A stretch of 64,000 nucleotides of DNA. Source: Burkholderiales bacterium (GTDB lineage Bacteria; Pseudomonadota; Gammaproteobacteria; Burkholderiales; Eutrophovitaceae). Numbering within the stretch: position 1 is the stretch's first letter; the number at the start of each line of letters is the position of its first letter. Location of the stretch: contig DATMAN010000038.1 in the NCBI GenBank assembly GCA_035560005.1, positions 4,009-68,008 of the forward strand, read 5' to 3'. Made by a program: the position numbers and the translations under genes. Below, piece by piece: positions 10,694-57,040 of this stretch. The notes under the pieces are model-generated. The model was not told the origin of the DNA. It saw only the letters and a program-made list of their open reading frames with translations, and did no database searches.

Positions 10694-10855
10694 CTCATGC
10701 GCTCACCGCGGAGGACGCGGGGAAATGCAGACCGGAGATTCACCACAAAGACCCAAAGAGAGCAAAGGTCACGAAGGAAACAACAAGAAGTCTTCGTGCT
10801 CCTTTGTGTCTTGGTGCCTTCGTGCCCTGCCTTCGGAGTGCCCTCAGTGTTCGGC
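10694..10855. repeat. palindromic repeat element, copy 1 (right outer arm degenerate)
   Basis: Starts 4 nt after the ctaB stop with GCGCTCACCGCGGAGGACGCGGGG. Inner CACAAAG/CACGAAG-type arms pair with TCTTCGTGCTCCTTTGTGTCTTGGTGCCTTCGTGCC. Confidence 0.6.
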
Positions 10856-10864
10856 TATCTCGAC

Positions 10865-11650
10865 ATGGCCTGGCGTTCATTGATCGCTGTGGTGCTGGCG
10901 GCGATGCCGGCGCTGGCGGCGGCGCAGGCCACGGCGCCGGACACGGACCAGGCGCTTGCGCTGAGCCAGGCGGCGATCGGCGCGCAGGTCGACGACTACG
11001 CGCTCGTGCGCAGCGACGGTGGCAGCGTGCGCCTGTCGGAGTTCAGGGGCAAACCACTGCTCGTGCAGTTCATCTACACCGGATGCTTCCAGGCCTGCCC
11101 GGTGTCGGTGAGGTACCTGCAGCGCGCGGTCGCCACGGCGCGCGCGGCGCTCGGGCCGGATGCGTTCTCCGTTCTCACCGTAGGCTTCAACCAGCCATTC
11201 GACACCCCGCAGGCGATGGCGGCGTTCGCTCGCGAGCACGCAATCGAGGATCGGCGCTGGTACTTTCTCGCAACCGATACCCGGACCATTGCCGCTTTCA
11301 CCCGCACCTTGGGCTTTACCTGGTATGCGACGCCCAAAGGCTTCGATCACGTCGCCCAAGTCACGGTGCTCGACGCGCGGGGCCGTGTCTATCGCCAGAT
11401 CTACGGCGAGCGCTTCGAGGCGCCACTGCTGGTCGAGCCGCTCAAGCAGCTCATCACCGGCGCGCCGGTCGCGCAAGGAGACTGGCGCGCCTGGCTCGAG
11501 AAGGTGCGGCTGTTCTGCACGGTCTACGACCGTTCCAGCGGCCGCTACCGGCTCGATTATTCGCTGTTCATCGAGATCTTCGCCGGCCTGACCATCGCGA
11601 GCACCGTCATCTTCGGGTTGCTTCGCGAGTGGCGCCGCCAGCGCCGCTGA
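10865..11650 (+). CDS. SCO1/SenC family copper chaperone
   Basis: ORF 10697..11650 trimmed to MAWRSLIAVVLAAMPALAAAQA. Thioredoxin-fold CxxxC (YTGCFQACP) and a C-terminal TM helix. The upstream part of the ORF is repeat-derived. Confidence 0.75.
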   Translation: MAWRSLIAVVLAAMPALAAAQATAPDTDQALALSQAAIGAQVDDYALVRSDGGSVRLSEFRGKPLLVQFIYTGCFQACPVSVRYLQRAVATARAALGPDAFSVLTVGFNQPFDTPQAMAAFAREHAIEDRRWYFLATDTRTIAAFTRTLGFTWYATPKGFDHVAQVTVLDARGRVYRQIYGERFEAPLLVEPLKQLITGAPVAQGDWRAWLEKVRLFCTVYDRSSGRYRLDYSLFIEIFAGLTIASTVIFGLLREWRRQRR

Positions 11651-11653
11651 TCT

Positions 11654-11800
11654 GAAAGCTCTCACCTCGGAGGACGCAGAGGAAAGGCAGGAGGCACAAA
11701 GAGACAAAGGAGACCGACACGAGGCTTGATTGCCGTTTCCTGCTTCGTGTTTCGCTTTTGAGGTGTGCTCCGCGTCCCCCGCGTCCTCTGCGGTGAGTGC
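11654..11800. repeat. palindromic repeat element, copy 2
   Basis: GAAAGCTCTCACCTCGGAGGACGCAGAGG ... CCGCGTCCTCTGCGGTGAGTGC. Begins 4 nt after the SCO1 stop. Confidence 0.7.
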
Positions 11801-11826
11801 TGAATCCGGTCTTCCCTGGGCTGGGC

Positions 11827-11840
11827 TTGATGCGAATCAA
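11827..11840. promoter_or_regulatory. FNR/Dnr-type box TTGATGCGAATCAA
   Basis: Perfect palindrome about 120 nt upstream of the cytochrome b-Fd-FNR gene. Confidence 0.55.
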
Positions 11841-11959
11841 ATGGGACCCGGGCATCCGCCGGTAGAGTGGTCCTGCGCGCGTTACGCGCGACCTATCGGC
11901 AGGCGAAGGAAGATGACTCCCGGCATTGCAGCGCCGCCCCGTCAGCAGGGGCGCAGCCG

Positions 11960-13846
11960 ATGACCCGCGGCATGCAGAAGGCGGGGCAGTGGCTGTTCCT
12001 GCGCGTGGAAGCCGGCTTCAACGCCTTCTTCGGCCAGGCCCTCAATCCGCTCTATCACCTGGGCGCGATCGGCTTCTTCCTGTTCTGGATCGCGCTCGCG
12101 AGCGGCTTGTACCTGTACGCATTTTTCGACACGGGCGTGACGGAAGCCTACGACTCGGTGGAAAAACTCACGCGCCAGTGGTACCTGGGCGGACTGATGC
12201 GCAGCCTGCACCGCTACGCCTCCGACGGCATGGTGCTGGTGATGATGCTGCACATGCTCCGGCACTTCGTGTTCGGTCGCTACCGCGATTTCCGCTGGTT
12301 CTCGTGGGCCACCGGGGTCGTGCTGCTGTGGCTCACCTACGCCTCGGGCATCAACGGCTATATGCTGCCCTGGGACCGTCTCGGCCAGTTCGTGGCCACC
12401 GCCACCGGCGAATGGCTCGACTGGTTCCCCATCTTCGCCGGCGAGGCAGCGCGCAACTTCGCCTTCCGCGGCAGCGTCAACGATCGCCTGTTCTCCCTGC
12501 TTTCGTTCCTGCATATCGGCATACCGCTCGCTGTGCTGATCCTCGCCTGGGTGCATACCCAGCGCGTTCCGCGGGCGCGCATCAACCCGCCGCGCGCGAT
12601 CTGGCTGCCGCTCGGGCTCGCGCTGGTCGTGCTCTCGCTCCTCAAGCCCGCGATGAGCCAGGGGCCGGCCGATCTCGCCGTGGTGCCCGCGACGCTGGCG
12701 CTCGACTGGTACTACCTGCCGCTCTATCCGCTGATCTACGAGTGGTCGCCCGGCGAAGTCTGGGCGCTGGCCTTCGGCGCGACGCTGCTGTTGTTTCTGG
12801 TGCCCTGGCTTCCGGCGCGCCGCGCGCGCGGCCATGAGCACCACGTCACCTTCCGTCCCGCCAATCTCTCCGCGACCGTGCGCGCGGGCGAGACGCTGCT
12901 GGAAGCCGGCTTGCGGCAGGGCATCGCGCTGCCTTACGACTGCCGTAACGGCGGCTGCGGCGTGTGCAAGGTGGCGATCGTGCACGGCCAGGTGGATCAC
13001 GGTCCCTACCAGAAGTCGGTGCTTTCCGACGAGGAGCGGGCGCGTGGAATGGCGCTGTTGTGCTGCGCGATCCCTCTTTCCGATCTGGACATCGAAGTGG
13101 AAACGGCCGCCTTGCCGAAGCGGGTGTGGGAGGCGACCGTCGTGCGCATGCAACGCGCGGCGCCCGAGGTCATGCTGCTGTGGCTGAGGCTCGATGGGTC
13201 TGAGCGCATCGAGTATCGCGCCGGGCAGTACATCAACATCCTTCTTCAGGACGGTGCCCGGCGCGCGTACTCCTTCGCCACGGCGCCCGGCGCCTCGGAT
13301 CTCATCGAACTGCACGTGCGGCGCATGCCCGGCGGGCGCTTCACCGGCTGGGTATTCGAGAAGATGCGGGTGGGCGACCGGCTGCGCTTCGAAGGACCGT
13401 TCGGAGCGTTCGTCCTCAACGAGGAAAGCCCGCGGCCGGTGATCTTCGTGGCCGGCGCCACCGGTTTCGCACCGGTGAAGAGCATGCTGGAAGACGCCTT
13501 CCGCAAGAACGTGCGCCGGCCGATGGTGCTCTACTGGGGCGTGCGCAGCCGGGAAGATCTCTACATGGCCGAACTTCCGGAACGCTGGGCACGCGAGCAC
13601 CCGAACTTCAGCTTCGTGCCGGTGCTCTCCGAGCCGAAGCCCGAAGACCACTGGCGCGGCCGCACGGGCCTGGTGCACGAGGCGATCCTGCAGGACTTCC
13701 CGACGCTGAAGGGTTACGAAGTGTATGCCTGCGGCTCGATGCAGATGGTCGAGGCGGCGCATCCCGAGTTCATCGCGCGCGGGCTGTCCGAGGATGCCTG
13801 CTTTTCCGACGCCTTTACCCCCGCGCCGGAGCCGGCGGCAACGTGA
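11960..13846 (+). CDS. fusion protein: di-haem cytochrome b + plant-type 2Fe-2S ferredoxin + FAD/NAD(P)H ferredoxin-reductase module
   Basis: N-terminus has the bc1-type cytochrome b pattern: HRYASDGMVLVMMLH and HIGIPLAVLILAWVH (His pairs 14 apart) and GYMLPWD. Middle has CRNGGCGVCK...LCC. C-terminus has RAYSFA (RxYS FAD motif) and VFVAGATGFAPV (NAD(P) binding). Confidence 0.75.
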   Translation: MTRGMQKAGQWLFLRVEAGFNAFFGQALNPLYHLGAIGFFLFWIALASGLYLYAFFDTGVTEAYDSVEKLTRQWYLGGLMRSLHRYASDGMVLVMMLHMLRHFVFGRYRDFRWFSWATGVVLLWLTYASGINGYMLPWDRLGQFVATATGEWLDWFPIFAGEAARNFAFRGSVNDRLFSLLSFLHIGIPLAVLILAWVHTQRVPRARINPPRAIWLPLGLALVVLSLLKPAMSQGPADLAVVPATLALDWYYLPLYPLIYEWSPGEVWALAFGATLLLFLVPWLPARRARGHEHHVTFRPANLSATVRAGETLLEAGLRQGIALPYDCRNGGCGVCKVAIVHGQVDHGPYQKSVLSDEERARGMALLCCAIPLSDLDIEVETAALPKRVWEATVVRMQRAAPEVMLLWLRLDGSERIEYRAGQYINILLQDGARRAYSFATAPGASDLIELHVRRMPGGRFTGWVFEKMRVGDRLRFEGPFGAFVLNEESPRPVIFVAGATGFAPVKSMLEDAFRKNVRRPMVLYWGVRSREDLYMAELPERWAREHPNFSFVPVLSEPKPEDHWRGRTGLVHEAILQDFPTLKGYEVYACGSMQMVEAAHPEFIARGLSEDACFSDAFTPAPEPAAT

Positions 13847-13858
13847 CCGGAGAATGAC

Positions 13859-14362: not shown

Positions 14363-14364
14363 CC

Positions 14365-15975
14365 ATGACCGCCGTTGCTCCCACCACCGCCGTTGCGATG
14401 CCGGCTGTGCGCCGCGCCGGCGAAACGCCGGGCCGTGCACAAATCCCCGCGCGCTCCCCGCAATGGTGGCGTGCGATGGAACGCGCAGTCGACGGCGTGA
14501 CCGGCGCGCGCCACAATCCGCTGCGAAACCTCGGCGCCCTCGGGTTCTACTTCTTCTGGATCGTTACCGCGAGCGGGGTCTATCTCTACGCTTTCTTCGA
14601 CACCAGCGTGACCGGTGCCTGGCAAAGCGTGGAGCGCATCACGCACGAGCAGTGGTACCTGGGCGGACTGATGCGCAGCCTGCACCGCTACGCCTCGGCC
14701 GGATTCTGCGTAGTCATGCTCGTGCATCTGTTGAAAGAGACGCTGTCGCGTCACTTCGGCGGCTTGCGTACATTCTCCTGGTTGACCGGCGTGCCGCTGA
14801 TCTGGCTCGCCTACGCCGCGGCGATCGGCGGCTACTGGCTGGTGTGGGACCGGCTCGCGCAGTTCTCCGCGACCGCGACCATGGAGTGGCTCGATGCGCT
14901 CGGCATCTTCGGGGAGCCGCTCGCGCGCAACTTCATCGCGCCCGACGCGGTCGACGACCGCCTCTTCTCGCTGCTGGTGTTCCTGCACATCGGCATTCCG
15001 CTGGCGCTGCTGCTCGGCATGTGGACGCACATCCAGCGCTTGAGCCACGCGGCAGTGTTGCCGTCGCGCCGGCTGGCGGCCTGCAGCTTCGCCGCGCTGC
15101 TGGCGGTGAGCGTGGTCCATCCGGCGCTCAGCCAGCCGCCCGCGGATCTCGCGCGCGTGCCTCGACAGCTCGGACTCGACTGGTTCTACATGTTCGTGCA
15201 TCCGCTCATGTATGAGACCTCCGCGGCCACCGTGTGGTGGCTGGCCGGCGCCGCGACCCTTCTGCTCGCGGCCCTGCCGCTCTTCGTGCGCGAGCCACGC
15301 GCACCGGCGGCGGTCGTCGATCCGCGCAACTGCAACGGTTGCGGGCGGTGCGTGGACGACTGCCCGTACGTGGCGATTACGCTCGTTCCCCATTCGATTA
15401 CCGGCGGACGGACATTGCAGGCGCTGGTCGATCCGGACCGCTGCGCGGCCTGTGGCATCTGTGTGGGCGCCTGTCCGTCTTCCACGCCGTTCCGTTCGGC
15501 GCGCGTGCTCGCCAGCGGAATCGAGCTGCCGCAGCTCACCGTGGATTCGCTGCGCGCGCGGCTGCGCGCCGCGCTCGCGCCCGCACCGGACCGCGCCCGC
15601 TACGTTGTCTTCGGTTGCGACTGCGCGGCCGAGGTCGCATCGCTGGCGAGCCGCGACGTCGCGGTCTTCGGCCTGCCGTGCGCCGGCATGCTGCCGCCGT
15701 CTTTCATTGCCTATGCCTTGCGGCTGGGCGCGCAGGGCGTGGTGGTGAGCACCTGCGGCGAAGGTGAGTGCGCCTACCGGCTCGGCGCCGAGTGGATCGA
15801 GCAGCGCATCAGCGCTCGGCGCGACCCGCGGCTGCGCCGCTCGGTGCCGCGCGATCGCGTGCGCCTGGTGCCGGCCGCGGGCGGCGAGTCCCGGCGCGTG
15901 GCCACGGAACTGGCGCTGCTGCGTGCGCATGCCGGCCAGCCGCAGCGCCTGGCGCGCCGAGGAGAAGCCGCATGA
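14365..15975 (+). CDS. fusion protein: di-haem cytochrome b + 2x[4Fe-4S] ferredoxin + MvhD/FlpD-like domain
   Basis: The cytochrome b domain is a paralogue of 11960..13846 (LHRYAS...MLVH, FLHIGIPLALLLGMWTH, GGYWLVWD). It is followed by CNGCGRCVDDCP and CAACGICVGACP, then VVFGCDC...LPCAGMLPPSFIAYALRLGAQGVVVSTCGEGECAYRLG resembling the MvhD delta-subunit domain. Start uncertain. Confidence 0.7.
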   Translation: MTAVAPTTAVAMPAVRRAGETPGRAQIPARSPQWWRAMERAVDGVTGARHNPLRNLGALGFYFFWIVTASGVYLYAFFDTSVTGAWQSVERITHEQWYLGGLMRSLHRYASAGFCVVMLVHLLKETLSRHFGGLRTFSWLTGVPLIWLAYAAAIGGYWLVWDRLAQFSATATMEWLDALGIFGEPLARNFIAPDAVDDRLFSLLVFLHIGIPLALLLGMWTHIQRLSHAAVLPSRRLAACSFAALLAVSVVHPALSQPPADLARVPRQLGLDWFYMFVHPLMYETSAATVWWLAGAATLLLAALPLFVREPRAPAAVVDPRNCNGCGRCVDDCPYVAITLVPHSITGGRTLQALVDPDRCAACGICVGACPSSTPFRSARVLASGIELPQLTVDSLRARLRAALAPAPDRARYVVFGCDCAAEVASLASRDVAVFGLPCAGMLPPSFIAYALRLGAQGVVVSTCGEGECAYRLGAEWIEQRISARRDPRLRRSVPRDRVRLVPAAGGESRRVATELALLRAHAGQPQRLARRGEAA

Positions 15976-17387: not shown

Positions 17388-17576
17388 CGAGCTCTCACCG
17401 CGGAGGGCGCGGGGGGACACGGAAGAGGGAACCCTGTAAAGCACACCACCAGGGCACAAAGACACAAAGGAGCACGAAGAAAGCACATGAAGTTCTTCTT
17501 TGTGTATCTTCGTGGCTTCGTGCCTTTGTGGTGAATTCCCGATCTGTCCTTCCTCCGCGTCCTCAGCGGTGAGCAG
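17388..17576. repeat. palindromic repeat element, copy 3 (most complete long hairpin)
   Basis: CGAGCTCTCACCGCGGAGGGCGCGGGG...CACAAAGACACAAAGGAGCACGAAGAAAGCAC / TTCTTTGTGTATCTTCGTGGCTTCGTGCCTTTGTGGTG...CCTCCGCGTCCTCAGCGGTGAGCAG. Starts 1 nt after the stop codon. Confidence 0.75.
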
Positions 17577-17603
17577 CCGAGACGTTTTGGGGAGTGCAGG
17601 GGA

Positions 17604-21486: not shown

Positions 21487-21673
21487 GAGGAAGTGCTAGA
21501 GGAAGAGCGAAGACATGCAGAAGTGCCGGAAGATCAGTATCAAGTGAACGGCGCTCGGAGAGGCAACCTGAACACGAAAAGCCGCGACATGAAGGGTTGC
21601 ACGCGTGATGTGTTGTCGGTGCCTTCTTGTTCTTCGTCGTGCCTTCGTGTCTTCGTGTTTCGCTCGTTTCTGC
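21487..21673. repeat. palindromic repeat element, copy 4 (left arm degenerate)
   Basis: Right arm GGTGCCTTCTTGTTCTTCGTCGTGCCTTCGTGTCTTCGTGTTTCGCTCG. Left arm GAAGAGCGAAGACATGCAGAAGTGCCGGAAGA only loosely complementary. Confidence 0.5.
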
Positions 21674-24410: not shown

Positions 24411-24617
24411 CGAAAGCGCTCATCGCGGAGGACGCAGAGGACGCAAAGGAAGAACGAAATCGAGAATGATTTCAGGGTTCAGCCGAACGTGATGATTGGT
24501 TCTGCCGGAATGCATCCGCTCGGGATCTGCCGCACCGCACGGCGCGACGCAGCCATCTCATATCTCTTTCGCGTTGCTTTACTCCGCGTCCTCTGCGACC
24601 TCCGCGGTGGAAGCTCG
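24411..24617. repeat. palindromic repeat element, copy 5
   Basis: CGAAAGCGCTCATCGCGGAGGACGCAGAGGACGCAAAGGAAGAACGAAATCGAG ... CTTTACTCCGCGTCCTCTGCGACCTCCGCGGTGGAAGC. Starts 7 nt after the nrdD-N stop. Confidence 0.75.
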
Positions 24618-26497: not shown

Positions 26498-26712
26498 CGA
26501 AATTGAACCACGGAGGACACGGAGGACACGGAGGAAGAACGAGAAAGGTGACAAGAGAGTGTCAGAAGGTGCGTTGACTGAATTGGCCCTCGATGCGAAG
26601 TGGGTTGGGGACAGATCGACCACGTGAGTTTGCACCCGCTGCTTGCATGGGCGTTACTCCAAGTTCCTGTTTTTCTCCGTGTCCTCCGTGTCCACCGTGG
26701 TTCATATTTTTC
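26498..26712. repeat. palindromic repeat element, copy 6 (GGACAC-type arms)
   Basis: Left GAAATTGAACCACGGAGGACACGGAGGACACGGAGGAAGAACGAG. Right CTGTTTTTCTCCGTGTCCTCCGTGTCCACCGTGGTTCATATTTTTC. About 45-bp near-perfect inverted arms. Starts 1 nt after the radical SAM stop. Confidence 0.8.
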
Positions 26713-28882: not shown

Positions 28883-29086
28883 AACGAAAACGCCCACCGC
28901 GGAGGACGCAAAGGACGCGGAGGAAGGCAAATCAGAAAATGACCACCAAGAGCGTCAGGGAAACGAGATGATCGGTTGTTTGTGTGCTTTCTTGGGGTTC
29001 CTGGCGGCTTTCGCGGTTCGTCCAAAGTCGTTTCTTTTTGTATTTCCTCTGCATCCTTTACGTCCTCCGCGGTGGGAGCAGATTTT
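28883..29086. repeat. palindromic repeat element, copy 7
   Basis: AACGAAAACGCCCACCGCGGAGGACGCAAAGGACGCGGAGGAAGGCAAATCAG ... GTATTTCCTCTGCATCCTTTACGTCCTCCGCGGTGGGAGCAGATTTT. Starts 4 nt after the nnrS stop. Confidence 0.8.
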
Positions 29087-29093
29087 GGAAACC

Positions 29094-29107
29094 TTAATCC
29101 GGATCAA
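29094..29107. promoter_or_regulatory. FNR-like half-degenerate box TTAATCCGGATCAA
   Basis: One mismatch. About 270 nt upstream of pqqA, so the assignment is weak. Confidence 0.3.
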
Positions 29108-29375
29108 GAAATCGGGAAAAAACGGGCACCCGCCTCGAAATCCATGAAAGTCATGAGGCGACTTTCATCAATTTCCCGATGCGCGATCGCGCAAGTTCGC
29201 GTCGCGGCCTGCCCGCGGGCGCAAACATAATCGAGCCGAACGTTGACCGCGCGGGGAGTCTCTGGGGCGCCTCTCCGCTTCCCGTGCGGCACAGCGTTCC
29301 GGCACTCGCCGGTGGGCGGCGACCGCGTCTGCCGCGCCCACGACGCCGTCGAAACGCTGTCCCAAGGAGGAAGAC

Positions 29376-29453
29376 ATGAAACAGTGGACCGACCCGGCGT
29401 ACTGCGATATTCGCCTGGGCTTCGAAGTCACGGCGTACGTGTACGTCCGCTAG
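29376..29453 (+). CDS. pqqA: PQQ precursor peptide PqqA
   Basis: Not in the ORF track. AAGGAGGAAG SD then MKQWTDPAYCDIRLGFEVTAYVYVR, with the conserved E-V-T-x-Y cross-link pair and high similarity to the remembered Pseudomonas/Klebsiella PqqA. Confidence 0.8.
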   Translation: MKQWTDPAYCDIRLGFEVTAYVYVR

Positions 29454-29464
29454 TCGCGTGCCGA

Positions 29465-29494
29465 GCGGGGGCGGGCGATCCGCTCCCGCCCCGC
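29465..29494 (+). promoter_or_regulatory. GC-rich hairpin between pqqA and pqqD
   Basis: GGGGCGGG (29468..29475) pairs with CCCGCCCC (29485..29492). Position matches the processing/attenuation hairpins described after pqqA in other pqq operons. Confidence 0.4.
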
Positions 29495-29511
29495 CGAAGG
29501 AAGCATCGATC

Positions 29512-29805
29512 ATGAATTGCGCCAATGCGTTCGGGGCTCACGAGCGCCCGGTCATCAACCCGCTGTTCCTGTTGCGCTGGGAACACACCCAGCAGGCCTA
29601 CGTGCTGCTCTACCCGGAGGGTGTCGTGAAGCTCAACGACACCGCCGGCGAAATCCTCAAGCGCTGCGACGGCCGGCACACCGTCGGCGAGCTGGTCGAA
29701 GAGATCACGCGCGAGTTTGCGGCCGATCCCGCCCGGATCGGCGAATCGGTGCAGAAATTCCTGGAGGTGTCCCATGCCAAAGGATGGATCCGTCGTCAGG
29801 CTTGA
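29512..29805 (+). CDS. pqqD: PqqA-binding chaperone PqqD
   Basis: ORF trimmed to MNCANAF after a GAAGGAAG SD. LLRWEHTQQAYVLLYPEGVVKLNDTAGEILKRCDG is a PqqD signature. Confidence 0.75.
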   Translation: MNCANAFGAHERPVINPLFLLRWEHTQQAYVLLYPEGVVKLNDTAGEILKRCDGRHTVGELVEEITREFAADPARIGESVQKFLEVSHAKGWIRRQA

Positions 29806-30916
29806 CGGGCAGGGCAAGCCGCTGTGGCTGGTGCTGGAGCTGACCTACCGCTGTCCGCTCGCCTGCCCTTGGTGCAGCAACCCGGTGGACTACCCCCGTT
29901 ACGGCGACGAGCTCACCACGGAAGAGTGGAAGCGTGTGCTGCGTGAAGGCCGAGAGCTGGGGGCGTTGCAACTCGGCTTTACCGGCGGCGAGCCGATGCT
30001 GCGCAAGGACCTGGAAGCGCTGGTCGAAGAGGCGCATGGCCTGGGCTACTACACCAACCTGATCACGTCCGGGATCGGGCTATCCGAGGCACGGCTCGCG
30101 GCCCTGAAGCGCGCGGGCCTGAATCAGATCCAGCTCTCCATCCAGTCGAGCCGGCGCGACCTCACCGACGAGCTGGTCGGTACGCGCGCCTTCGACCACA
30201 AGCTGACAGTGGCGCGGCTCATCAAGGCCTACGGGTTTCCGATGGTGCTCAACGTTCCGGTGTTCCGGCAGAACGTGGACCTCACCGCCGAGATCCTGCA
30301 AATGGCCGAGGACATCGGCGCGGACTATCTCGAGTTCGCCAACATCCAGTACTACAACTGGGCGATGGTGAACCGCGACGAGCTGCTGCCTTCGCTCGGG
30401 CAGCTCAAACGCGCCGAGGCCATCGTGCAGGAGGCGCGCGAGCGGCTCGACGGAAAGATGACCATCTACTTCGTCATCCCCGACTACTACGAAGAGCGCC
30501 CGAAGGCCTGCATGAACGGCTGGGGTTCGATTCACCTGACCATAGCGCCCGATGGCACGGCGCTGCCGTGCCAGGAAGCGCGCGTGATCACGGGGCTGGA
30601 ATTTCCGACCGTGCGCGAGAAGAGTCTCGCGTGGTTGTGGAACGAGTCGCCGGCCTTCAGCAAGTTCCGCGGAGAAGACTGGATGAAGGAACCCTGCCGC
30701 AGTTGCAGCGAGAAGGAGAAAGACTTCGGCGGCTGCCGCTGCCAGGCGCTGCTGCTCACGGGGGACGCGGCCAACACCGATCCCGCGTGCGCGAAGTCGC
30801 CGCACCATTATCTGATCGTCGAGGCGGTGGCGCGGGCCAGCGACCCGGGCCGTGCGCACCAGCCGCTGGTGATGCGGCGGGCGAGCCGCGAGGAACCGGA
30901 GATCGCGCCGGGATGA
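29774..30916 (+). CDS. pqqE: radical SAM PqqA peptide cyclase PqqE
   Basis: GGAGG SD. LELTYRCPLACPWCSNP radical SAM cluster plus a SPASM-type Cys-rich C-terminus (CRSC...CRCQ). Confidence 0.85.
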   Translation: MPKDGSVVRLDGQGKPLWLVLELTYRCPLACPWCSNPVDYPRYGDELTTEEWKRVLREGRELGALQLGFTGGEPMLRKDLEALVEEAHGLGYYTNLITSGIGLSEARLAALKRAGLNQIQLSIQSSRRDLTDELVGTRAFDHKLTVARLIKAYGFPMVLNVPVFRQNVDLTAEILQMAEDIGADYLEFANIQYYNWAMVNRDELLPSLGQLKRAEAIVQEARERLDGKMTIYFVIPDYYEERPKACMNGWGSIHLTIAPDGTALPCQEARVITGLEFPTVREKSLAWLWNESPAFSKFRGEDWMKEPCRSCSEKEKDFGGCRCQALLLTGDAANTDPACAKSPHHYLIVEAVARASDPGRAHQPLVMRRASREEPEIAPG

Positions 30917-31020: not shown

Positions 31021-31243
31021 AGGAAAAGCAGAAGGACGAAACACGAAGACCCGAAGAAAGCGCGGGGGTAACGACTCATATAGGAGGCCACGCTTCGCAA
31101 CGACATGAGGGATGCACGTTCCAGCACGAACACCTGAAGACACAGACTGTGACAGCTTGGGGATATGAACGCCCCACGCTGACAGTCTTCTTTTCAACCT
31201 TGCTGGGTTTTCTTCGTGTCTTCGTGTTTCGCTCTGGATCTTT
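31021..31243. repeat. palindromic repeat element, copy 8 (CACGAAG-type arms)
   Basis: AGCAGAAGGACGAAACACGAAGACCCGAAGAAAGC ... GGGTTTTCTTCGTGTCTTCGTGTTTCGCTCTGG. Starts right after the stop at 31020. Confidence 0.75.
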
Positions 31244-35156: not shown

Positions 35157-36833
35157 TCAGTGGCTCGTGCCCGAGGACCGGGTGATCTTGTTCCAGACGT
35201 TGTATTTGCCCACGGGTTTTCGCATCGGCAGGCGCTTGACTTCCTCGAGCGTGGCCGCGTCGTACACCACGAGCGCGCCGTCCTCTTCCCACACGCTGGC
35301 GAGGGCATAGCGCCCGTCTCGGGTGAACTCGACATGCGCCACGGTCCTGCCCGGGGCGGGCCGCAGGGTCTTCACCACCTGCAGCGTGCGCTTGTCGATC
35401 ACTTGCAGCGCATCGCGGTTCGGGCTGTTGAAGGAATCGGTCCAGGCGTAAGGCGTGTTCTCGTGGCTGCGCAGGAAAAAGCCCGGTCCGAGCGTCTCGA
35501 TTTGCCTGACGGTCTTCCAGGTCTTCATGTCGATCACGCTGATCACGCCGGCCTTGAGGTTGGGCGTTGCCATGACCCAGCGCCCGTCCAGCTCCCAGGA
35601 GATTCCCGACCCCAGGTGCGGCAGCCCCGGCAGCTCGACCTCCGCGATCTTGCGGCGCACGTCGAGGTTGACCACCTGGCCCTTGCCGCCGTCGCGCGCC
35701 GCGCCGATGACATACGCGTAGCTCGGATCGAAGAAGAAATCGTCGAGGATCTCTTCCAGTACTGCACGGCGCGCAGTGAACTGGCCGGGCGCCGCCAGCC
35801 CTTCGTTCATGCGGTAGTCGTGCACCAGGCCCTCGTACACCGGCTCTGCTTCGGGGTCGTAGGACATTTCCCAGATCTCGGGAATGTCCTTGAGCGCCAG
35901 GATGAAACTCTTCCGGGGCTTGGCGTCGTACACCGCGCCCACACGCGAAGGGCGGCCGTCCCTGTCCTGAACCGGGATGACGCGGACGACGGACAGATCG
36001 GCCGCTTCGAGGATCACGAGCGTGCGAGGCAGGTAGTTGCCCACGGCCACGTATCGGCCGTCGCCGGAGACCGCTGCATTGCGTGTGTTGATCCCGGCGC
36101 GTACCTCCGCGACCATCGCCAGGCTCCAAAGGTCGTACTTCGAGATCCAGCCGTCGCGCGAGACGAAATAGACGTAGCGTCCATCCGGAGAAAACTTCGG
36201 CCCTCCGTGCAGGGCATAGCGCGTGGGGAATCGGGCGAGCGGTTCCAGCCGGTCGCCATCCAGGATCGTCGCGTGATGGTCGCCGGCCTCGACCACAACG
36301 AACAGGTTCAGCGGATCGGCATCGTAGACGGGCTGCGCGGGCAGGCTTCCGGCGGCGCGGTGAATGACGCGTGAGGCTTCGATCTGGGCCCGGTCCCAGA
36401 TCGGCATCCGCGCAAGCGGCGTAAAGATGTACTCGACAAGCGACTGGATCTGCGCGGCCGAGAGTTCTGTTTCGAAGCCGGGCATTTGCGTGGCGTGCCG
36501 TCCTTTCGCGACGAGCTGTTCGGCCGCCGCTCGCTTGAGCCGTTCGAGGTTCTCGGGCAGCAGAGCCGGCCCTGTCGCTCCGAGACGGTCCGCGCCGTGG
36601 CACGCGGCGCAGTGTTCCCTGTACAGCGCCTGCGCCTCCTGCGCCATGGCTGTGCCGGCAAGGGCCAGAAGAGCGAAACAAGAAGGCAAGAGCAACACGA
36701 GCACAAGACAGCGGCGCCCAGGGACGCCTTGATGATTCCTCTTTTCGTTCCTCGCAATGCTTCGGAGACATCCCCCCGGGTTTTTCTTTCGGATCCTGTT
36801 TTTCTTCGTGTCTTCGTGCTTCGTTCTGGTCAT
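35157..36833 (-). CDS. nirN: cytochrome cd1-like dihydro-haem d1 dehydrogenase NirN
   Basis: CAACHG haem c motif followed by a cd1-type beta-propeller. Last gene of the nir cluster. ATG 36833 overlaps the nirJ stop (ATGA). The first roughly 55 codons are repeat-derived. Confidence 0.7.
   Translation of the reverse strand: MTRTKHEDTKKNRIRKKNPGGCLRSIARNEKRNHQGVPGRRCLVLVLLLPSCFALLALAGTAMAQEAQALYREHCAACHGADRLGATGPALLPENLERLKRAAAEQLVAKGRHATQMPGFETELSAAQIQSLVEYIFTPLARMPIWDRAQIEASRVIHRAAGSLPAQPVYDADPLNLFVVVEAGDHHATILDGDRLEPLARFPTRYALHGGPKFSPDGRYVYFVSRDGWISKYDLWSLAMVAEVRAGINTRNAAVSGDGRYVAVGNYLPRTLVILEAADLSVVRVIPVQDRDGRPSRVGAVYDAKPRKSFILALKDIPEIWEMSYDPEAEPVYEGLVHDYRMNEGLAAPGQFTARRAVLEEILDDFFFDPSYAYVIGAARDGGKGQVVNLDVRRKIAEVELPGLPHLGSGISWELDGRWVMATPNLKAGVISVIDMKTWKTVRQIETLGPGFFLRSHENTPYAWTDSFNSPNRDALQVIDKRTLQVVKTLRPAPGRTVAHVEFTRDGRYALASVWEEDGALVVYDAATLEEVKRLPMRKPVGKYNVWNKITRSSGTSH
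36665..36829. repeat. palindromic repeat element, copy 9 (degraded), inside the nirN 5' coding region
   Basis: Right arm CCTGTTTTTCTTCGTGTCTTCGTGCTTCGTTCTGG. Left arm CCAGAAGAGCGAAACAAGAAGGCAAGAGCAACACGAGCACAAG, about 70 percent complementary. Confidence 0.55.
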
Positions 36834-38041
36834 TGTGATCCCTCGGGGGCCGTGCGGCGCGCGCGCGAGTAGGGCGTGAGGACGAGGCGCGGAGAGGCAT
36901 CGGCGATGCCCAGTTCTTCGTCGGTCAGGTAGCAAGCCGGATCCTCCGCCCACGGATCGCCGGTGAGCTGCCAGGCACGGGTGCGCGTGTTGCCGTTGCA
37001 CACGTCGAGAAAGCGGCATTGCGCGCAGCGGCCTCGAACCGGGCGCGGACGCTGCCTGAGCCCGCGCATCAGGGGATCGGAAACGTCGTTCCACAGTTCG
37101 GAGAAAGGACGTTCGCGCACGTTGCCGATGGTGTATTCCCACCACATCGTGTCGGGATGGACATTGCCGAGGTTGTCGATGTTGGCGATGCCGATCCCGG
37201 AACTGTTGCCACCCCATTCGCCGAGCTTCGCGCGCAGGTGGGCCACGCGTCCCGGGTGATGTTTCACGGCCCATCGCAGCAACCAGATCGCGTCGGCGTC
37301 GTTGTTGCCGGTGACGAACTCGGTCGGCAGGCCGCGCCGCAGATGGTCGCAGGCGGTGCGCAGGAGCAGGTCGATCGCCCAGCGGGTGGTCAGATGCAGC
37401 GCGTCGCGCGCGCGGTTCACGTTGCCGCGCCCGGCGTAGTTGAGGTGCGACATATAGAATTTGAAGACGCGCTCGCGCTCGATCAGTTCGAGCAGGTGCG
37501 GCAGGTCCTGGGCGTTGTCCTGGGTGAGCGTGAAGCGCACCCCCACCTTCAGCCCCGCGTCGCGCACCAGGCGGATCCCTCGGAGTGCCGCGTCGTAGCC
37601 GCCCGGCATGCGGCGGAAGCGGTCGTGAGTGTCGCGCATGCCGTCCAGGCTCACGCCCACGTAGTCGAATCCGGCGGCGGCGATGTCTCCAGCGTTGTGC
37701 TCGTTGATCAGCGTGCCGTTGGTGGACAGCCCGACGTAGAAGCCCATGTCTTTCGCGCGCCGCGCGATGGAGAAGATGTCCGGGTGCAGCAGGGGCTCGC
37801 CGCCGGAGAGGATCAGCACCGGCGCGCCGGAGCGCTTCAGGTCATCCATCACCGCGAAGATCTCCGGCGTGGCGAGCTCTCCCGGGAAGTCGTGGTCGGC
37901 CGAGATCGAGTAACAGTGCCGGCAGGCGAGATTGCAGCGCCGCAGCAGGTTCCAGATGACGACCGGCCCACTCGGCCGCGCTCCCGTGCCCAACGGCGTC
38001 GGATTTTCGATTTCCCTCAAATACTGCGTCAGTCGGAACAT
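36830..38041 (-). CDS. nirJ: radical SAM haem d1 biosynthesis protein NirJ
   Basis: LLRRCNLACRHCY cluster, SGGEPLL, C-terminal CAQCRFLDVCNG. Confidence 0.85.
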   Translation of the reverse strand: MFRLTQYLREIENPTPLGTGARPSGPVVIWNLLRRCNLACRHCYSISADHDFPGELATPEIFAVMDDLKRSGAPVLILSGGEPLLHPDIFSIARRAKDMGFYVGLSTNGTLINEHNAGDIAAAGFDYVGVSLDGMRDTHDRFRRMPGGYDAALRGIRLVRDAGLKVGVRFTLTQDNAQDLPHLLELIERERVFKFYMSHLNYAGRGNVNRARDALHLTTRWAIDLLLRTACDHLRRGLPTEFVTGNNDADAIWLLRWAVKHHPGRVAHLRAKLGEWGGNSSGIGIANIDNLGNVHPDTMWWEYTIGNVRERPFSELWNDVSDPLMRGLRQRPRPVRGRCAQCRFLDVCNGNTRTRAWQLTGDPWAEDPACYLTDEELGIADASPRLVLTPYSRARRTAPEGSQ

Positions 38042-40036: not shown

Positions 40037-41260
40037 TCAGAACCCGATGCGCGCCGCGCGCGCCGTGAAGAAAATGCCGCTCGGTTTGTCGGCCGGGACT
40101 TCGGCAACGCGTTGCAGGCTTGCCGTGTCGTAGACCACGACGCGGTCGTCGTCGCGCGCCGAGATCCACACCGCCTCGCCGCGCGGGGTGAACTCCATGT
40201 GCAGCACCGCCCGCCCCGGTTCGAGCGTGCGCGCCACGCAGCCGCACTCGGTGTCGATGACTTGCACGCGCCCGTTATCGGGGAAGGCGAAGCTCACCCA
40301 CACCTGGCGCGCATCGGGCCGCGCCACCACGAACACGGGCTGGCCGGCCACGGCGATGCGCCCGGTCTCCTGCCAGCTTTCGGTGTCGACAACGAGGACT
40401 TCGTGGCGCCCGATCGCCGGCACGAAGGCACGGCAGCCGGCGACTGCCCAACCGCGCAGATGCGGCATCTTGTAGACCGGGAGTTTCTCTTCGCCCTGGC
40501 GATAGCCCTGCAGGATCCGCCGCACGCCGCGCTCGGGATGCCACAAATCCAGCAGCGCCAGACCGTCTTCGCCGTACAGGCCCGCGACGTACCAGCGGCC
40601 GTCGGGCGTCACCAGTCCGTCGTAGGGCTGCAGGCCGGCCGCGAACTTCTGCACGCCGGGCCGGCGCGGATTCGAGGCGTCCACCAGCCAGATCTCCCCG
40701 GCGTCGAACAGGCTGAAGACAAACCGGCCGCCGGGCGCATCGGCCAGTCCGACCACCTTCGAGCGCTGCTGCGCATCACCGAACTCGGCGGGAATGTCGG
40801 CCAGCAGCTCCAGCGTGTCCGCGGAGAACAGCTTCACGCCTCCGGGCGCGTAGTTCTGCGCGGCGACCACGCGGCCGTCCTGTGAGATGGCCCCGCCGAT
40901 GCTGTTGCCGGCCTGCAGGATGCGTGCGTCGATGCGCGCGCCGAGCAGATCGACTTTGGTGAGCCCGCCGTCGCGCCCGAACACGAAGGCGTAGCGCCCG
41001 TCGCGCGAATACACCGCCGAGGCGTGCGACAGATCCCCCAGACCCTCGACGCGTGCGATGGCGGTGCGCGCGCTGGTATCGAGCACCCGGACGCTGCCCG
41101 CGGCTCGCTCGATCACGATCCCCAGATCGCCCGTGCCTCGCAACTGCGCCTGCGCGGCGGGCGCAACCAGCGAAGCGGCGAGCGCAAACCCCGAGACGGA
41201 AAGGCGAAGCACGAAGGCACGAAGGCACGAAGGCAGTTCGGGTGACAAGAAAGCCCTCAT
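40037..41260 (-). CDS. nirF: haem d1 biosynthesis protein NirF (cd1-like propeller)
   Basis: LRGTGDLGIVIERAAGSVRVLD...GLGDLSHASAVYSRDGRYAFVFGRDGGLTKVDLL closely resembles NirF. Both the ATG at 41260 and the alternative GTG at 41212 lie inside repeat copy 10. Confidence 0.75.
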   Translation of the reverse strand: MRAFLSPELPSCLRAFVLRLSVSGFALAASLVAPAAQAQLRGTGDLGIVIERAAGSVRVLDTSARTAIARVEGLGDLSHASAVYSRDGRYAFVFGRDGGLTKVDLLGARIDARILQAGNSIGGAISQDGRVVAAQNYAPGGVKLFSADTLELLADIPAEFGDAQQRSKVVGLADAPGGRFVFSLFDAGEIWLVDASNPRRPGVQKFAAGLQPYDGLVTPDGRWYVAGLYGEDGLALLDLWHPERGVRRILQGYRQGEEKLPVYKMPHLRGWAVAGCRAFVPAIGRHEVLVVDTESWQETGRIAVAGQPVFVVARPDARQVWVSFAFPDNGRVQVIDTECGCVARTLEPGRAVLHMEFTPRGEAVWISARDDDRVVVYDTASLQRVAEVPADKPSGIFFTARAARIGF

Positions 41261-41402
41261 CCGTCTGCACCGCTGGCCAAACGCCGCTGCCGCAGCACAA
41301 CTGCGGAAAAGTCTCTCGGTAATCTTCACGCCTATTCCGGCTCCTGGTTTTGCACTTCTTCGTGCCTTCGTGTTCTCGTGCTTCGCTCTTGTGTTTCTTC
41401 TG
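41193..41402. repeat. palindromic repeat element, copy 10
   Basis: Left arm contains 3x CACGAAGG (41210..41233). Right arm CTTCTTCGTGCCTTCGTGTTCTCGTGCTTCGCTCTTGTGTTTCTTCTG. The arms overlap the nirF start and the nirC 3' end. Confidence 0.8.
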
Positions 41403-41745
41403 AATCCAGGCCGCGCATCAGCGCCTCGGTCAGCCACCGCGCTTCGCGCTCGCTGAGGAAAGTCCGCCAGCCCGGCATCGCCGTGCCCGGGCGGCCATCG
41501 AGGATGATCCGCGTGAGATTTTCCGGCGGCTTGCCGCGCAGGCTCGATGGATCGAGCGCCGGCCCGAGCCCGCCGGTCAGGCGCAAGCCGTGGCAGGCGC
41601 CACAGTCGTGGCGGATGAGATGGGCCAGTTCCTGCCTGCGCGCCAGGCTCGGTTCTGCCGGGTCGACCGCGCAGGCTGCCTGCGCCGCAAGCGCCAGCGA
41701 GGCGGCGAGGGCGAGTCCGGAACCGCTGTGAATCGTTTGCCGCAC
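41332..41745 (-). CDS. nirC: small mono-haem cytochrome c (NirC / c55X-like)
   Basis: CGACHG motif. Position between nirM and nirF. Start placed at the GTG giving signal peptide MRQTIHSGSGLALAASLALAAQA (uncertain). The last 23 codons are repeat-derived. Confidence 0.55.
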   Translation of the reverse strand: MRQTIHSGSGLALAASLALAAQAACAVDPAEPSLARRQELAHLIRHDCGACHGLRLTGGLGPALDPSSLRGKPPENLTRIILDGRPGTAMPGWRTFLSEREARWLTEALMRGLDSEETQERSTRTRRHEEVQNQEPE

Positions 41746-41923
41746 GAACAGTTTGAAAATGGCCACCAGAGAACTTTGCCTGCACCGAGCAGCGGATGTT
41801 TTGAGGCAGGTCAAATCGGCTCGTGTGCAGCAAAAAAACGGGGGCAGAGCCCCCGCGAAACTGGAGTGCACCAAATACAGGTCAGATCAATGATGTGCCG
41901 CTGTCTCTTCGTGCCTGCCGGTG

Positions 41924-52106: not shown

Positions 52107-52278
52107 CGCGTCCGGTCCGCGTGGCGCCTGGCAGACCGCCGGTCCCGGCTTGAATGGGCGCACGTCGAGCGGCAAGATCAGGGAATGCCCGCTTGTCGCC
52201 GGTTCGCGACAGCGAGCGGCGATGGCGCGCGAAATTCTTGCGGCATTTCCGCTCGCGGTTTTGTATGCTTGAGTTGTC

Positions 52279-52863: not shown

Positions 52864-53051
52864 CCCGATTGCGCCAAGAGCGATCATCCGCGAGCGCAGC
52901 GCTCCGGCGTGCTCGCCGCGCGGGGATCGATGCGCACTCGCGGCGATTGCCGCGGCCCTGCGCCGCGCCTAGAATCTCGACGCCCCGGCGCATCGATCGA
53001 TAATCCACGAGGCCGCGGCCCAGGGCGCGCAGTCGCGCGAGGGGGGAATCG

Positions 53052-53828: not shown

Positions 53829-53850
53829 ACGTGCGCGAGGCAACCGACCG

Positions 53851-55017: not shown

Positions 55018-55641
55018 CGGAGCTCAGGCGACCGGCGGGCCGGGTGAGGGGTGAGAAGGGGAGGGAAAGGGTGCGACACAACTGCGCACGAGTCATCACG
55101 TCCCGCACCTCCGACGACGTCGGCCTTCAAGTATTTCGGCCGTTCGGAAGGAGCCGCATCGACCCCTGTCAAATGCCGGCTTGCAGGGCAGCAGAAGACG
55201 CTTCCGGGTCCTCCATCTTGCGCCAGAGCGGATGAAGGCGTCGGGGTCCCGCATCCGAGTTGTGGCCGATACCACAGTAAGTGGCGGCCCTTGCCCGTGA
55301 CGGGCAGGAATGGTCAGAGACAACTTCGAACGGAACCCCTCATGCTGCCGTCGGGTCCGTCTGCATCGGGACGGTGAGAACCGCCCCCTGGTCACCAGCT
55401 CCGCGACCCATCATCACCGGGACCCCGAGCCCACTTGAAAGTATAGGCGCTTCATCGCAGGGCGGTACCGGGATTTTTGGTGACCGAATGCACAGTGCCG
55501 CAACCCGCCGGCCATTTCCGGCGAGGTGCGCGTTACGCCCAAAGCGGGCACCAACTCACTGCGACATCGAAGATCTCAACGCGGCGGCGCGGAGGGGGCA
55601 TCCTCTGCACCTTGTTGTTGGGGGCGGCTCTTTGGAACGTT

Positions 55642-56949
55642 TCAGAGCCGTCCGCTGCGCTTGATGTCGATGTAGCTGTTCACCAGCGCAATCGGCAGCC
55701 GCTCGGGCTCGACGTCCACGCACACCGCACCGCCGCGCTCCAGGCTCCGGAAGATCAGCTCGCGCCGGCGCAGGTAATCGGCCGTGGCCGCGTGCGTGAG
55801 GGCGCGCTCGAAGGTGTCTGCGCGCGTGGCGAGCGCGCGGGACAGAATGCTCTCGCGCAGAGAGGCGAACAGGACCAGGTGGCGCGAATGCAGGAGCTTG
55901 AGCGCCGGCGCGAGCGCCTCGTCGTCCTCGTCGCGCAGGTTGGACAGCATCACCACGAGCGCGCGCTTGCGCGTGCGCTGCATGAGATCGACCGCCGCCT
56001 TGTAGTAATCGGTGGGCGCGAGCGTCGGGTGCAGGTCGTAGACGCGGTTCAGGATCAGGTTGATGGTCGCGCGCGACTTGCGCGGCGCGATCCAGCGCGG
56101 CTCCGCCGACATGGTCAGCAGTCCCACTGCGTCCCCCTGACGCAGGCTCACGTAGGCGAGCAGCAGCGCGGCGTTCACCACGTGGTCGAAGTGAGAAAGC
56201 GCGTCGTCCTTCGCCGCCATGCGCCGGCCGCAGTCGAGCATCAGCACCACCTGCTGATCGCGCTCGTCCTGGTACTCGCGGGAAATCAGCCGGGCCATGC
56301 GCACGCTCGCCTTCCAGTCGATCTGCCGGGGCGAGTCGCCCTCGCGATATTCGCGCAGTTGATGGAAATCGAGCCCTTCGCCGCGCCGCCGGCGTTGCAG
56401 CAGGCCGATCTGCGACAGCCGATGGTCGGTGGCGAGGATCGCGAAGTGGGTCAGCTCCGCGAAGTTCGGATAGACGCGCGCGGCCCGCGGTTCTCCGATC
56501 AGCACGTGGCGCTGCCACAACCGCAGGGGTGAGTCGACGCGTGCCTCGATTCGCCCGAACTGCATGTCGCCGCGCAGGACCGGGCGGAAGCGGTACCTGA
56601 TCTCGGCCCAGCCTCGCGCGGGGACCGTGACCCTTCGTGGCAATCCCTCGACCTCCGCGCCCGATGGATGGTGATCGTGCACCGCGACACCGAGCGCCCG
56701 AGCACCGCCGTTGGCCAGACGCAAGGACACCTCGTGGCCCACGCCGAGGGGCAGCGAAGCCGGCATTACGCGGCGTCCGAGCAGCGGTGGCAGGCGCCGC
56801 GCGGCCATGGCGTCGCCGAGAACCCCCGTCCCCAGCAGAGCGCAGGCCGCGAACCAAGCCGGCAGCGCCACCGGCCAGATCGAGGCCGCGATGCCGCCTG
56901 CGGTGAGGGCACCCGTCAGCCAGAGCAGTCGCGGAGCCGGAATCAGCAT
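55642..56949 (-). CDS. DUF58 (vWA-like) protein
   Basis: ORF trimmed to MLIPAPRLLWLTG. GEGLDFHQLREYREGDSPRQIDWKASVR is the DUF58 signature. Confidence 0.7.
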   Translation of the reverse strand: MLIPAPRLLWLTGALTAGGIAASIWPVALPAWFAACALLGTGVLGDAMAARRLPPLLGRRVMPASLPLGVGHEVSLRLANGGARALGVAVHDHHPSGAEVEGLPRRVTVPARGWAEIRYRFRPVLRGDMQFGRIEARVDSPLRLWQRHVLIGEPRAARVYPNFAELTHFAILATDHRLSQIGLLQRRRRGEGLDFHQLREYREGDSPRQIDWKASVRMARLISREYQDERDQQVVLMLDCGRRMAAKDDALSHFDHVVNAALLLAYVSLRQGDAVGLLTMSAEPRWIAPRKSRATINLILNRVYDLHPTLAPTDYYKAAVDLMQRTRKRALVVMLSNLRDEDDEALAPALKLLHSRHLVLFASLRESILSRALATRADTFERALTHAATADYLRRRELIFRSLERGGAVCVDVEPERLPIALVNSYIDIKRSGRL

Positions 56950-56964
56950 CTGAACTTGCCGGCG

Positions 56965-57040
56965 CTGCTCACTGTGTGTTCTTCGCGTCTTGTTGCCTTT
57001 GTGGTGACATCCGATCTCCGCTTTGTCTTCGGCGCTCGCA
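56965..57040. repeat. half-copy/remnant of the palindromic repeat family, copy 11
   Basis: TTCTTCGCGTCTTGTTGCCTTTGTGGTGACATCCGATCTCCGC parallels the right half of copy 3 (CTTCGTGCCTTTGTGGTGAATTCCCGATCTGTCC). Confidence 0.5.

Follow-up and report, generated by a model that had tools for sequence, protein, structure and literature searches.

The closest analogues of the elements described here appear to be those 23S ribosomal RNA (rRNA) intervening sequences (IVSs) that carry an open reading frame (ORF), the repetitive extragenic palindromic (REP) units and their paired forms (REPINs) with the associated REP-associated tyrosine transposases (RAYTs), and miniature inverted-repeat transposable elements (MITEs) such as Correia. 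REP units are imperfect palindromes of 20-40 nt in which a 6-13-bp stem is accompanied by an unpaired GTAG or CGTC tag (PMC3733652), and the RAYT (TnpA-REP) gene is itself flanked by these repeats in opposite orientations (PMC2817692, PMC3733652). IVSs, as encountered in Coxiella and Leptospira, reside inside the host transcript, where a stem of ~28 bp encloses little or one small ORF (S23p in some of them); they are thought to be selfish and horizontally moved, the stem keeping the host RNA functional, and the Coxiella stem is cleaved by RNase III (PMC4990558). Elements of the Correia, ERIC, RUP and BOX groups are ORF-less, intergenic and co-transcribed, measure 100-200 nt and form long hairpins with their terminal inverted repeats. 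Correia RNA is also a substrate of RNase III. The DNA considered here is a stretch of 64 kb (66.6 % GC) from contig DATMAN010000038.1 of a Burkholderiales bacterium, referred to below as the window. It harbors 11 palindromic sequences (E1 to E11), which we regard with moderate confidence as miniatures lacking an ORF, some of them decayed to remnants, that belong to a dispersed mobile family tied to cassettes encoding a GxxExxY nuclease. New in this respect are the link to the GxxExxY cassette and the evidence of turnover, which would together describe a MITE/REPIN-like system whose partner protein is unexpected and whose architecture recalls that of IVSs.

The elements are composed of two inverted arms of 25-55 nt, purine-rich on the 5' side and pyrimidine-rich on the 3' side, which are built from tandem units of 8-9 nt and enclose a core that is not conserved. 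Arm types were A (GCRGAGGAC), A' (CACGGAGGA), B (CACGAAGG/A), GCAGAGGC and CACCAAGG, a further type being labelled CACAGAGG; the type-A terminus follows the pattern AGCNCTCACCGC[R]GAGGACGC.... The 11 sequences are given below with the z-score of their folding relative to dinucleotide shuffles.

E1, 10697..10850: remnant in the spacer between ctaB (UbiA family) and the SCO1-like gene, right arm decayed; canonical type-A left terminus (22 bits with nhmmer) with the exact 17-mer at 10702, inner CACAAAG/CACGAAG units, core similar to that of E3; z = -0.8.
E2, 11656..11802: intact type A after the SCO1-like stop codon (11650); paired termini 11661+/11781-, 32-33 bits each; z = -5.9.
E3, 17390..17576: intact long rod hairpin between the COX1-like gene (stop 17387) and a U32 peptidase gene; outer units of type A, inner units CACAAAG/CACGAAG; minimum free energy -104 kcal/mol, z = -7.8.
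E4, 21487..21668: remnant whose CTTCGTG-type right arm (21619-21668) is well kept, the purine-type left arm having decayed; tandem 8-mers at 21637-21662, unit cluster detected; z = 0.0.
E5, 24414..24615: intact type A filling the spacer between nrdD and the B12-radical-SAM gene (upstream stop 24404, next ATG 24629); arms 24421-24451 / 24579-24609, 84 % complementary; z = -4.3.
E6, 26502..26706: intact CACGGAGGA type directly after the radical-SAM stop codon (26497), preceding a small nrdD-like ORF and nrdG; arms 26504-26536 / 26672-26704, 94 % complementary, with a 9-mer repeated three times at 100 %; z = -8.7.
E7, 28888..29080: intact type A after the nnrS stop codon (28879), upstream of an FNR-like box and pqqA; arms of 46 nt, 80 % complementary; z = -7.9.
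E8, 31029..31236: intact CACGAAGA type after a small ORF 3' of pqqE (stop 31020); arms 31037-31059 / 31209-31231, 96 % complementary; z = -5.7.
E9, 36665..36830: remnant between nirJ (36830-38041, - strand) and nirN; CTTCGTG-type arm retained, purine arm decayed, tandem 8-mers at 36803-36824; z = 0.2.
E10, 41193..41400: intact CACGAAGG type in the spacer that separates nirF from a cytochrome c gene (two - strand genes); 8-mer repeated four times, arms of 40 nt, 80 % complementary; z = -8.8 on the + strand and -4.9 on the - strand.
E11, 56965..57012: lone pyrimidine arm of the right type (...CCTTTGTGGTGA) with a - strand gene on either side, resembling the inner arm of E3; z = -0.9.

These intergenic palindromes were confirmed to be real. 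The original prediction, made from the letters of the window, had announced about 11 copies or remnants, and all 11 places held the described feature, seven as intact elements and four as remnants. The 17-mer CTCACCGCGGAGGACGC was found 10 times in the window with up to three mismatches (1.05 expected; none of 100 shuffles reached 10), and clusters of at least two purine-type units occurred eight times on the + strand and nine times as reverse complement, where shuffles gave ~1.0 and 1.6. Inverted arms were delimited at E5, E6, E7, E8 and E10 (23-46 nt, 80-96 % complementary), and E2 and E3 were recognised as paired termini. In the folding check that had been proposed, these seven elements all beat dinucleotide shuffles (z = -4.3 to -8.8), with values near 0 for the decayed or half copies E1, E4, E9 and E11. 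The reality of the family is thus established by the enrichment over shuffles, by the inverted arms and by the folding. A gapless hairpin detector was too strict and under-counted the elements, because tandem units shift the register.

Element length ranged from 147 to 208 nt and core length from 73 to 144 nt. Core GC content was 0.48-0.58, against 0.666 for the window, and 5' arms were 68-81 % purine; since the element is palindromic, the purine arm lies 5' on either strand. The description of the cores as mutually unrelated and GC-poorer held except for the similar cores of E1 and E3. No protein match was obtained with the window cores, and their interpretation as remnants of GxxExxY genes was dropped for want of similarity. 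The anticipated start some 1-7 nt past an upstream + strand stop codon was encountered at E1 to E8, the gap from element to next start being 14 to more than 270 nt. Tandem Repeats Finder placed 8- and 9-mers where they had been announced, and the ends proposed as typical apply to the five type-A copies (E1, E2, E3, E5 and E7) but not to the others. An interpretation of E1 to E3 as a CACGAAG-type element nested in a type-A element was abandoned in favor of a simpler one, a subfamily with long composite arms. Outer units can also form small local hairpins with the GAGGA/TCCTC block in the loop (26508-26522, 26686-26700 and 28890-28909; examples are CCGTG-TCCAC-CGTGG and CGCG-GAGGA-CGCG), exclusively for unit types with CGCG or CACGG...CGTG.

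Duplex energies between left and right arms were about -50 to -70 kcal/mol within a type, mostly -20 to -45 kcal/mol between clearly different types and intermediate between the related types A and A'. As these energies group by type, both arms of a copy are always of the same type. The predicted arm-to-arm covariation was thereby recovered between subfamilies; within type A, for which 34 distinct elements from many genomes were compared, the pattern was mainly one of conservation, with modest covariation. The GAGGACGC block of each 9-mer was essentially invariant and eight of the nine unit positions were nearly fixed, the leftover purine (columns 15, 24 and 33) alternating between G and A almost or wholly independently on the two arms. 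This variable purine was uncompensated, as the counts at column 15 show (GC 12, GU 8, AU 5, AC 7). Neither the overall pairing (87.9 %, shuffles 85.6 %) nor the covariation score (0.147, shuffles 0.109) was reached in any of 500 shuffles. Taken with the fixed columns, these scores indicate that the signal consists of sequence conservation plus modest covariation, mainly at the outermost bases, which also change together in orthologous GxxExxY cassettes (TAAACGC/GCGTTTA, TAACCGC/GCGGTTA and TCACCGC/GCGGTGA). The arm pattern looks unlike selection on RNA pairing alone: with eight positions near-invariant across phyla and the ninth uncompensated, recognition of the sequence by a protein seems more likely, or else continual copying, be it from a master element or among copies.

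Comparison of the fetched loci (n = 203, designated by L-numbers) showed what appears to be the full-length form in other bacteria, namely hairpin arms enclosing one small GxxExxY nuclease gene. In L049, two termini enclose a 125-aa ORF within a - strand operon, which matched NCBIfam GxxExxY (TIGR04256, E ~1e-41; Pfam PDDEXK_3, PF13366). The clearest case was L186, where the stop codon of an MR_MLE gene is followed by CTCTCACCGCGGAGGACGCAGAGGACGCGGAGGAAAAAC, an ORF running from ATG to TAG, TTTTTCCTCCGCGTCCTCTGCGTCCTCCGCGGTGAGAG and the next gene. Its arms are perfectly complementary, and GGAGGA, the last unit of the 5' arm, stands 5 nt ahead of the ATG with the spacing of a Shine-Dalgarno sequence, while the 3' arm begins right at the stop codon. 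With a terminus profile built exclusively from ORF-less copies, those of the window included, the L186 arms ranked near the top, with 40.9 and 43.7 bits. The same arm-GxxExxY-arm arrangement was encountered between trpD and trpC in L176, L201, L202, L203 and L113, and related arms surrounded the acidobacterial GxxExxY genes of L021, L204, L209 and L214. Two to three tandem right arms, ~110 nt apart, followed the GxxExxY gene in L021 (3100-3240) and L209 (~1930-2180). L113 also displayed a chimera of the form arm-core-arm-ORF-arm. When loci were scanned for paired arms, no ORF other than GxxExxY turned out to be bracketed base-for-base by single arms, the RelB-like antitoxin ORF of L113 lying instead between two complete elements. 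Both forms occupy spacers of co-directional genes and adjoin the upstream stop codon. Neither the arms nor their link to GxxExxY were found described in the literature searched, which left subscription journals outside, and a search with the 9-mer GGAGGACGC returned primers and unrelated matches only.

The GxxExxY protein was described in a survey as being of unknown function and subject to multiple horizontal transfers (PMC3424549). The family is very large (19,607 clusters at 50 % identity, E <= 1e-3), its members being mostly located on very short contigs, and its representatives include tandem two-domain proteins of 265-295 aa (P0361-P0366 etc.). Both the PD-(D/E)XK signature (D67, E77, K79) and the GxxExxY motif were invariant, and the nuclease looks functional. 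In an AlphaFold model (predicted local distance difference test, pLDDT, 87.6), the nearest solved folds were Cas4 and lambda exonuclease, although weakly so (E = 6e-3, TM ~0.5). A PDB sequence search gave no relative, PADLOC a marginal Cas4 match only (E = 0.009) and PHROGs none. GxxExxY proteins of the trp locus shared 71-90 % amino-acid identity, against 40-52 % at third codon positions, and these identities tracked those of trpD, from which it follows that the gene is under purifying selection and long resident at this locus.

A scan of one genome per species with the exact 17-mer terminus returned at least 120 stretches, including many chance matches in high-GC genomes (actinomycetes and others), from which true elements were sorted by arm pairing and profile. 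Paired termini were found in at least 20 loci of Betaproteobacteria/Burkholderiales metagenome-assembled genomes (MAGs), among them those of Sulfuricella and Alcaligenaceae. MAGs with the labels Planctomycetota, Binatia, Acidobacteria and Saprospirales (Bacteroidota) displayed looser termini, mis-binning being possible there for single contigs. Copies were thus not restricted to the region in which the original prediction had located them, the same termini being present in many other genomes. They can be dense: L113 displayed ~8 elements per 8 kb, between housekeeping genes (trpG/trpD/trpC, porin, valS). Logan contigs of the window's own organism (L001 and L002) start and end inside E6 and E7, which indicates that short-read assemblies break at the elements. 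The full-length cassette gave no match in PLSDB plasmids (blastn) and the terminus was present in only five viral contigs, so that the elements do not appear as a phage or plasmid feature. Toxin-antitoxin-type genes (RelB/ParE-like, ribbon-helix-helix antitoxin-like, HepT/MntA) were observed beside or between ORF-less elements in L113 (3494-4306 and 6362-7504) and L049 (113-829), a distribution which suggests that other selfish genes gather at element sites.

Turnover was apparent in homologous spacers. L203 carries a 235-nt CACGAAGG-type element right past the trpC stop codon, in the trpC/porin spacer, which is absent in L176, L201 and L202, the spacers being otherwise alignable. L203 and L113 are close (trpD 89 % identical at the nucleotide level) and have homologous flanks around the element of their trpG/trpD spacers, which is nevertheless of the CACCAAGG type in one of them and of type A in the other. 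Among relatives of the window (L123-L126, 79-86 % protein identity), the orthologous spacers held different types, candidate half elements or nothing:

nrdD/radical-SAM spacer: window, type A; L123, GCAGAGGC x5; L124, degenerate; L126, -.
radical-SAM/nrdG spacer: window, CACGGAGGA; L123, left arm only; L124, degenerate; L126, CACGAAGG x4.
After nnrS: window, type A; L123, CACCAAGG; L124 and L126, neither nnrS nor element.
After pqqE: window, CACGAAGA; L123, purine-rich left-arm-like remnant (possible half element); L124 and L126, CACGGAGGA.

The spacer orthologous to that of E5 is thus also occupied by an element in L123 and L124. It held no element in more distant relatives (52-71 % identity, mostly in other gene contexts, from a metagenome scan with the radical-SAM protein), so the element is not universal there. 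These comparisons showed insertion polymorphism and replacement at occupied sites. Orthologous trpG/trpD arms were 78-92 % identical, against 52-59 % for trpD third positions, with unalignable cores, and the arms were thus shown to be conserved beyond neutral expectation. The proposal of a mobile family agrees with the termini dispersed over genomes and phyla, the presence/absence and subfamily differences, the half-elements and the ORF-bearing form.

An alternative between MITE, REP and Correia-like families had been offered for the window elements. Generic MITE features were recovered (147-208 nt, no coding capacity, inverted arms, many dispersed copies within the window and in dozens of loci elsewhere, presence/absence differences), although no target duplication was seen and the longer form with the same termini encodes GxxExxY instead of a known transposase. 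Membership in the REP, Correia, attC or 23S rRNA IVS groups was rejected, their defining features being absent. With REP/REPIN-RAYT systems the elements share high-copy intergenic palindromes, mostly between co-directional genes, and inverted unit pairs forming a long hairpin; their arms are, however, tandem direct 8-9-mers without a stem-plus-tag architecture, and the flanked gene, which can be numerous rather than single-copy, encodes a PD-(D/E)XK nuclease and not a Y1 HUH enzyme. The resemblance to 23S rRNA IVSs lies in a stem enclosing little or one small ORF inside a host transcript. Here the host is an mRNA spacer instead of rRNA helix 9/25/45 (all window copies lie between protein-coding genes), the protein is a PD-(D/E)XK enzyme instead of the four-helix-bundle S23p, and arms of tandem 8-9-mers occur in many copies per genome. 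Correia, ERIC, RUP and BOX elements are alike in size, lack of an ORF, terminal inverted repeats, intergenic location, co-transcription and folding but display no sequence relation; no TA or other target duplication was seen, the present termini are tandem units conserved across phyla, and the long form lacks a DDE transposase. The homing genes seg and mob of phage T4 are comparable as small nuclease genes between conserved co-directional genes, expressed by read-through, and break-and-repair copying would be plausible for both; those enzymes are of the GIY-YIG or HNH type, without bracketing arms and without ORF-less copies at hundreds of unrelated sites.

The mechanism that we propose is the following. 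The ORF-less copies would not be autonomous but rely on a GxxExxY nuclease whose gene lies at another place in the genome, and this nuclease would recognise the arm units or the hairpin/cruciform. Breaks made by the nuclease may be repaired from other copies, which would account for arm homogenisation, for replacement of resident elements and for chimeras such as that of L113; a first insertion into an empty site would need an additional step. In the operon transcript, the arms would pair and the insert loop out, bringing the upstream stop codon near the downstream start. By pairing, the arms may also hide the internal Shine-Dalgarno sequence, much as in the fold-back inhibition known from IS10. 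The insert would thereby be tolerated and its stem would be a likely RNase III substrate, by analogy with 23S rRNA IVSs. More tentatively, the GxxExxY (PDDEXK_3) nucleases and their tandem-unit hairpin arms may form an unrecognised, cross-phylum class of selfish elements, a nuclease-based counterpart of REP-RAYT and a relative of rRNA IVSs in protein-coding operons. The nuclease would read the 8-9-nt units (eight fixed bases and one free purine) and drive copying and replacement of elements via break-induced repair, and elements would come to rest immediately 3' of stop codons, since they are looped out of the operon mRNA there by the hairpin, the 11 window copies being non-autonomous progeny.

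Several results weigh against a mobile family driven by GxxExxY. No GxxExxY gene is present in the 64-kb window (tblastn, best E = 2.8), which makes the window copies ORF-less, and no ORF-bearing version of the CACGAAGG, CACGGAGGA and CACCAAGG arm types, which constitute half of the window copies, was found in the loci scanned. Inspection by eye of the flanks of ~19 copies revealed no consistent direct repeat that could be a target-site duplication. The trp-locus gene has long been inherited vertically, as would be expected of a gene that has become fixed or domesticated no less than of one that is active and selfish. PD-(D/E)XK nucleases cut DNA but are not known to transpose unaided. In a rival reading, the hairpins would predate the gene: they would constitute a REP/MITE-like family of their own, mobilised by a different enzyme, with GxxExxY as a secondary invader homing into their loops, so that the ORF-bearing form would not have given rise to the miniatures. 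We hold this to be quite improbable. ORF-less copies do far outnumber ORF-bearing ones in every locus read, compact hairpins of 85-105 nt with almost no core occur, several arm types have no known ORF partner, and other small selfish genes (HepT/MntA, RelB/ParE-like) lie beside or between elements. Yet the betaproteobacterial arms abut the ATG, with GGAGGA as Shine-Dalgarno sequence, and the stop codon within 0-6 nt, as expected of a co-adapted unit and not of random insertion into a loop, and base-for-base bracketing by single arms was exclusive to GxxExxY in the loci scanned. No Y1 transposase or RAYT was present among the ~30 window ORFs scanned against Pfam, nor was a RAYT or other transposase seen to adjoin any element among the part of the ORFs that was scanned.

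Another explanation is selection by the host: the elements would be structured RNA modules (punctuation, RNase III sites, 3' stabilisers or weak terminators), spread by virtue of their operon function and merely used by GxxExxY. This appears unlikely. It would explain the intercistronic position right after stop codons, the long stems with very low z-scores, the covarying outer arm pairs of orthologues, the flanks of many copies, which are rich in A on the 5' side and in T on the 3' side, and a core subfamily which is encountered again at other sites of other genomes and adopts one long rod structure with eight pairs changed on both sides. For 12 of the 17 elements compared, folding was also slightly better in the sense transcript than in its antisense counterpart (mean -2.75 kcal/mol), but not significantly so (Wilcoxon p = 0.16), which weighs against the RNA steps of the mechanism proposed above as well, and E10 folds better on its antisense strand. 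Host selection accounts less well for arms that are near-invariant across phyla with an uncompensated variable site, for arm types replacing one another at one site between close relatives, for the frequency of half-elements and decayed copies, and for distant relatives without an element at the same spacer. Rfam gave no match at gathering score over the whole window, in which there is no rRNA, and none at E <= 5 over 10-42 kb. The intrinsic terminator scan detected 10 sites against 13.3 in shuffles and, within the elements, flagged nothing beyond small sub-hairpins, located at the ends of E6 and E7; given cores of 70-140 nt and no terminator excess, whole elements do not resemble intrinsic terminators. 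RNase III processing or operon punctuation would be a reasonable consequence of a 25-45-bp mRNA stem. Integron attC sites, or an array of the CALIN type (cluster of attC sites lacking an integrase), share imperfect palindromes with variable centres immediately 3' of stop codons; some ends in L113 and L049 read GCTCAAC...GTTGAGC, similar to RYYYAAC/GTTRRRY, and toxin-antitoxin genes separate some copies. All window copies nevertheless display ACC/GGT (ends of the form CTCACC...GGTGAG) or other bases in place of AAC/GTT (C:G 24 and A:T 3 in the corresponding column of 34 elements), and their stems of 25-55 bp are much longer and lack R/L box spacing. The genes they separate are not cassettes but large syntenic housekeeping genes (nrdD-nrdG, pqqADE, nir, trpGDC), with or without an element, and neither the ORFs scanned against Pfam nor those with precomputed Pfam matches included an integrase. 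An attC origin, contradicted by the R-box triplets and by synteny, is therefore extremely improbable.

The genes of the window serve in respiration and in anaerobic metabolism:

+ strand: ctaB, SCO1-like gene, cytochrome b / COX1-like genes, U32 peptidases, nrdD, B12-radical-SAM gene, nrdG, nnrS and pqqA-D-E.
Minus strand: nir cluster with nirS, cytochrome c genes, nirF, nirDL/GH-like genes, nirJ and nirN.
29376-30916: pqqA (25 aa, TIGR02107), pqqD and pqqE.

An FNR/Dnr-like box (CTTAATCCGGATCAAG) at ~29093-29108 was kept in L123, L124 and L126, E7 being located between nnrS and this box. An unrelated element of 277 bp (5837-6113) lies directly downstream of ctaA and displays 33-nt terminal inverted repeats (CTAGAACCTATCTCAAAATCCCCGGCGGCCGCG), 94 % complementary; its overlying ORFs had no Pfam match, and no copy was present in the 203 fetched loci. 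ARAGORN reported a 'tRNA-???' with a two-base anticodon at 15505-15596 (-), within a coding region and probably a false positive.

Returning to a mobile family tied to GxxExxY, its members fragment metagenome assemblies and give rise to spurious ORFs with odd translations (LRVLRVLRGE, for example). Gene ends can be altered as well: the cytochrome c gene (41332-41874, - strand) runs through an arm of E10 before its stop codon, so that its last ~20 codons are element-derived. The elements probably affect expression of denitrification, pyrroloquinoline quinone (PQQ), ribonucleotide-reductase and tryptophan operons. If the link to GxxExxY holds, it would provide the first functional context for a very large orphan family and point to a compact nuclease recognising repeat units or hairpins. 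It would also offer a model of how selfish genes enter essential operons without breaking them, which would bear on the origins of rRNA IVSs.

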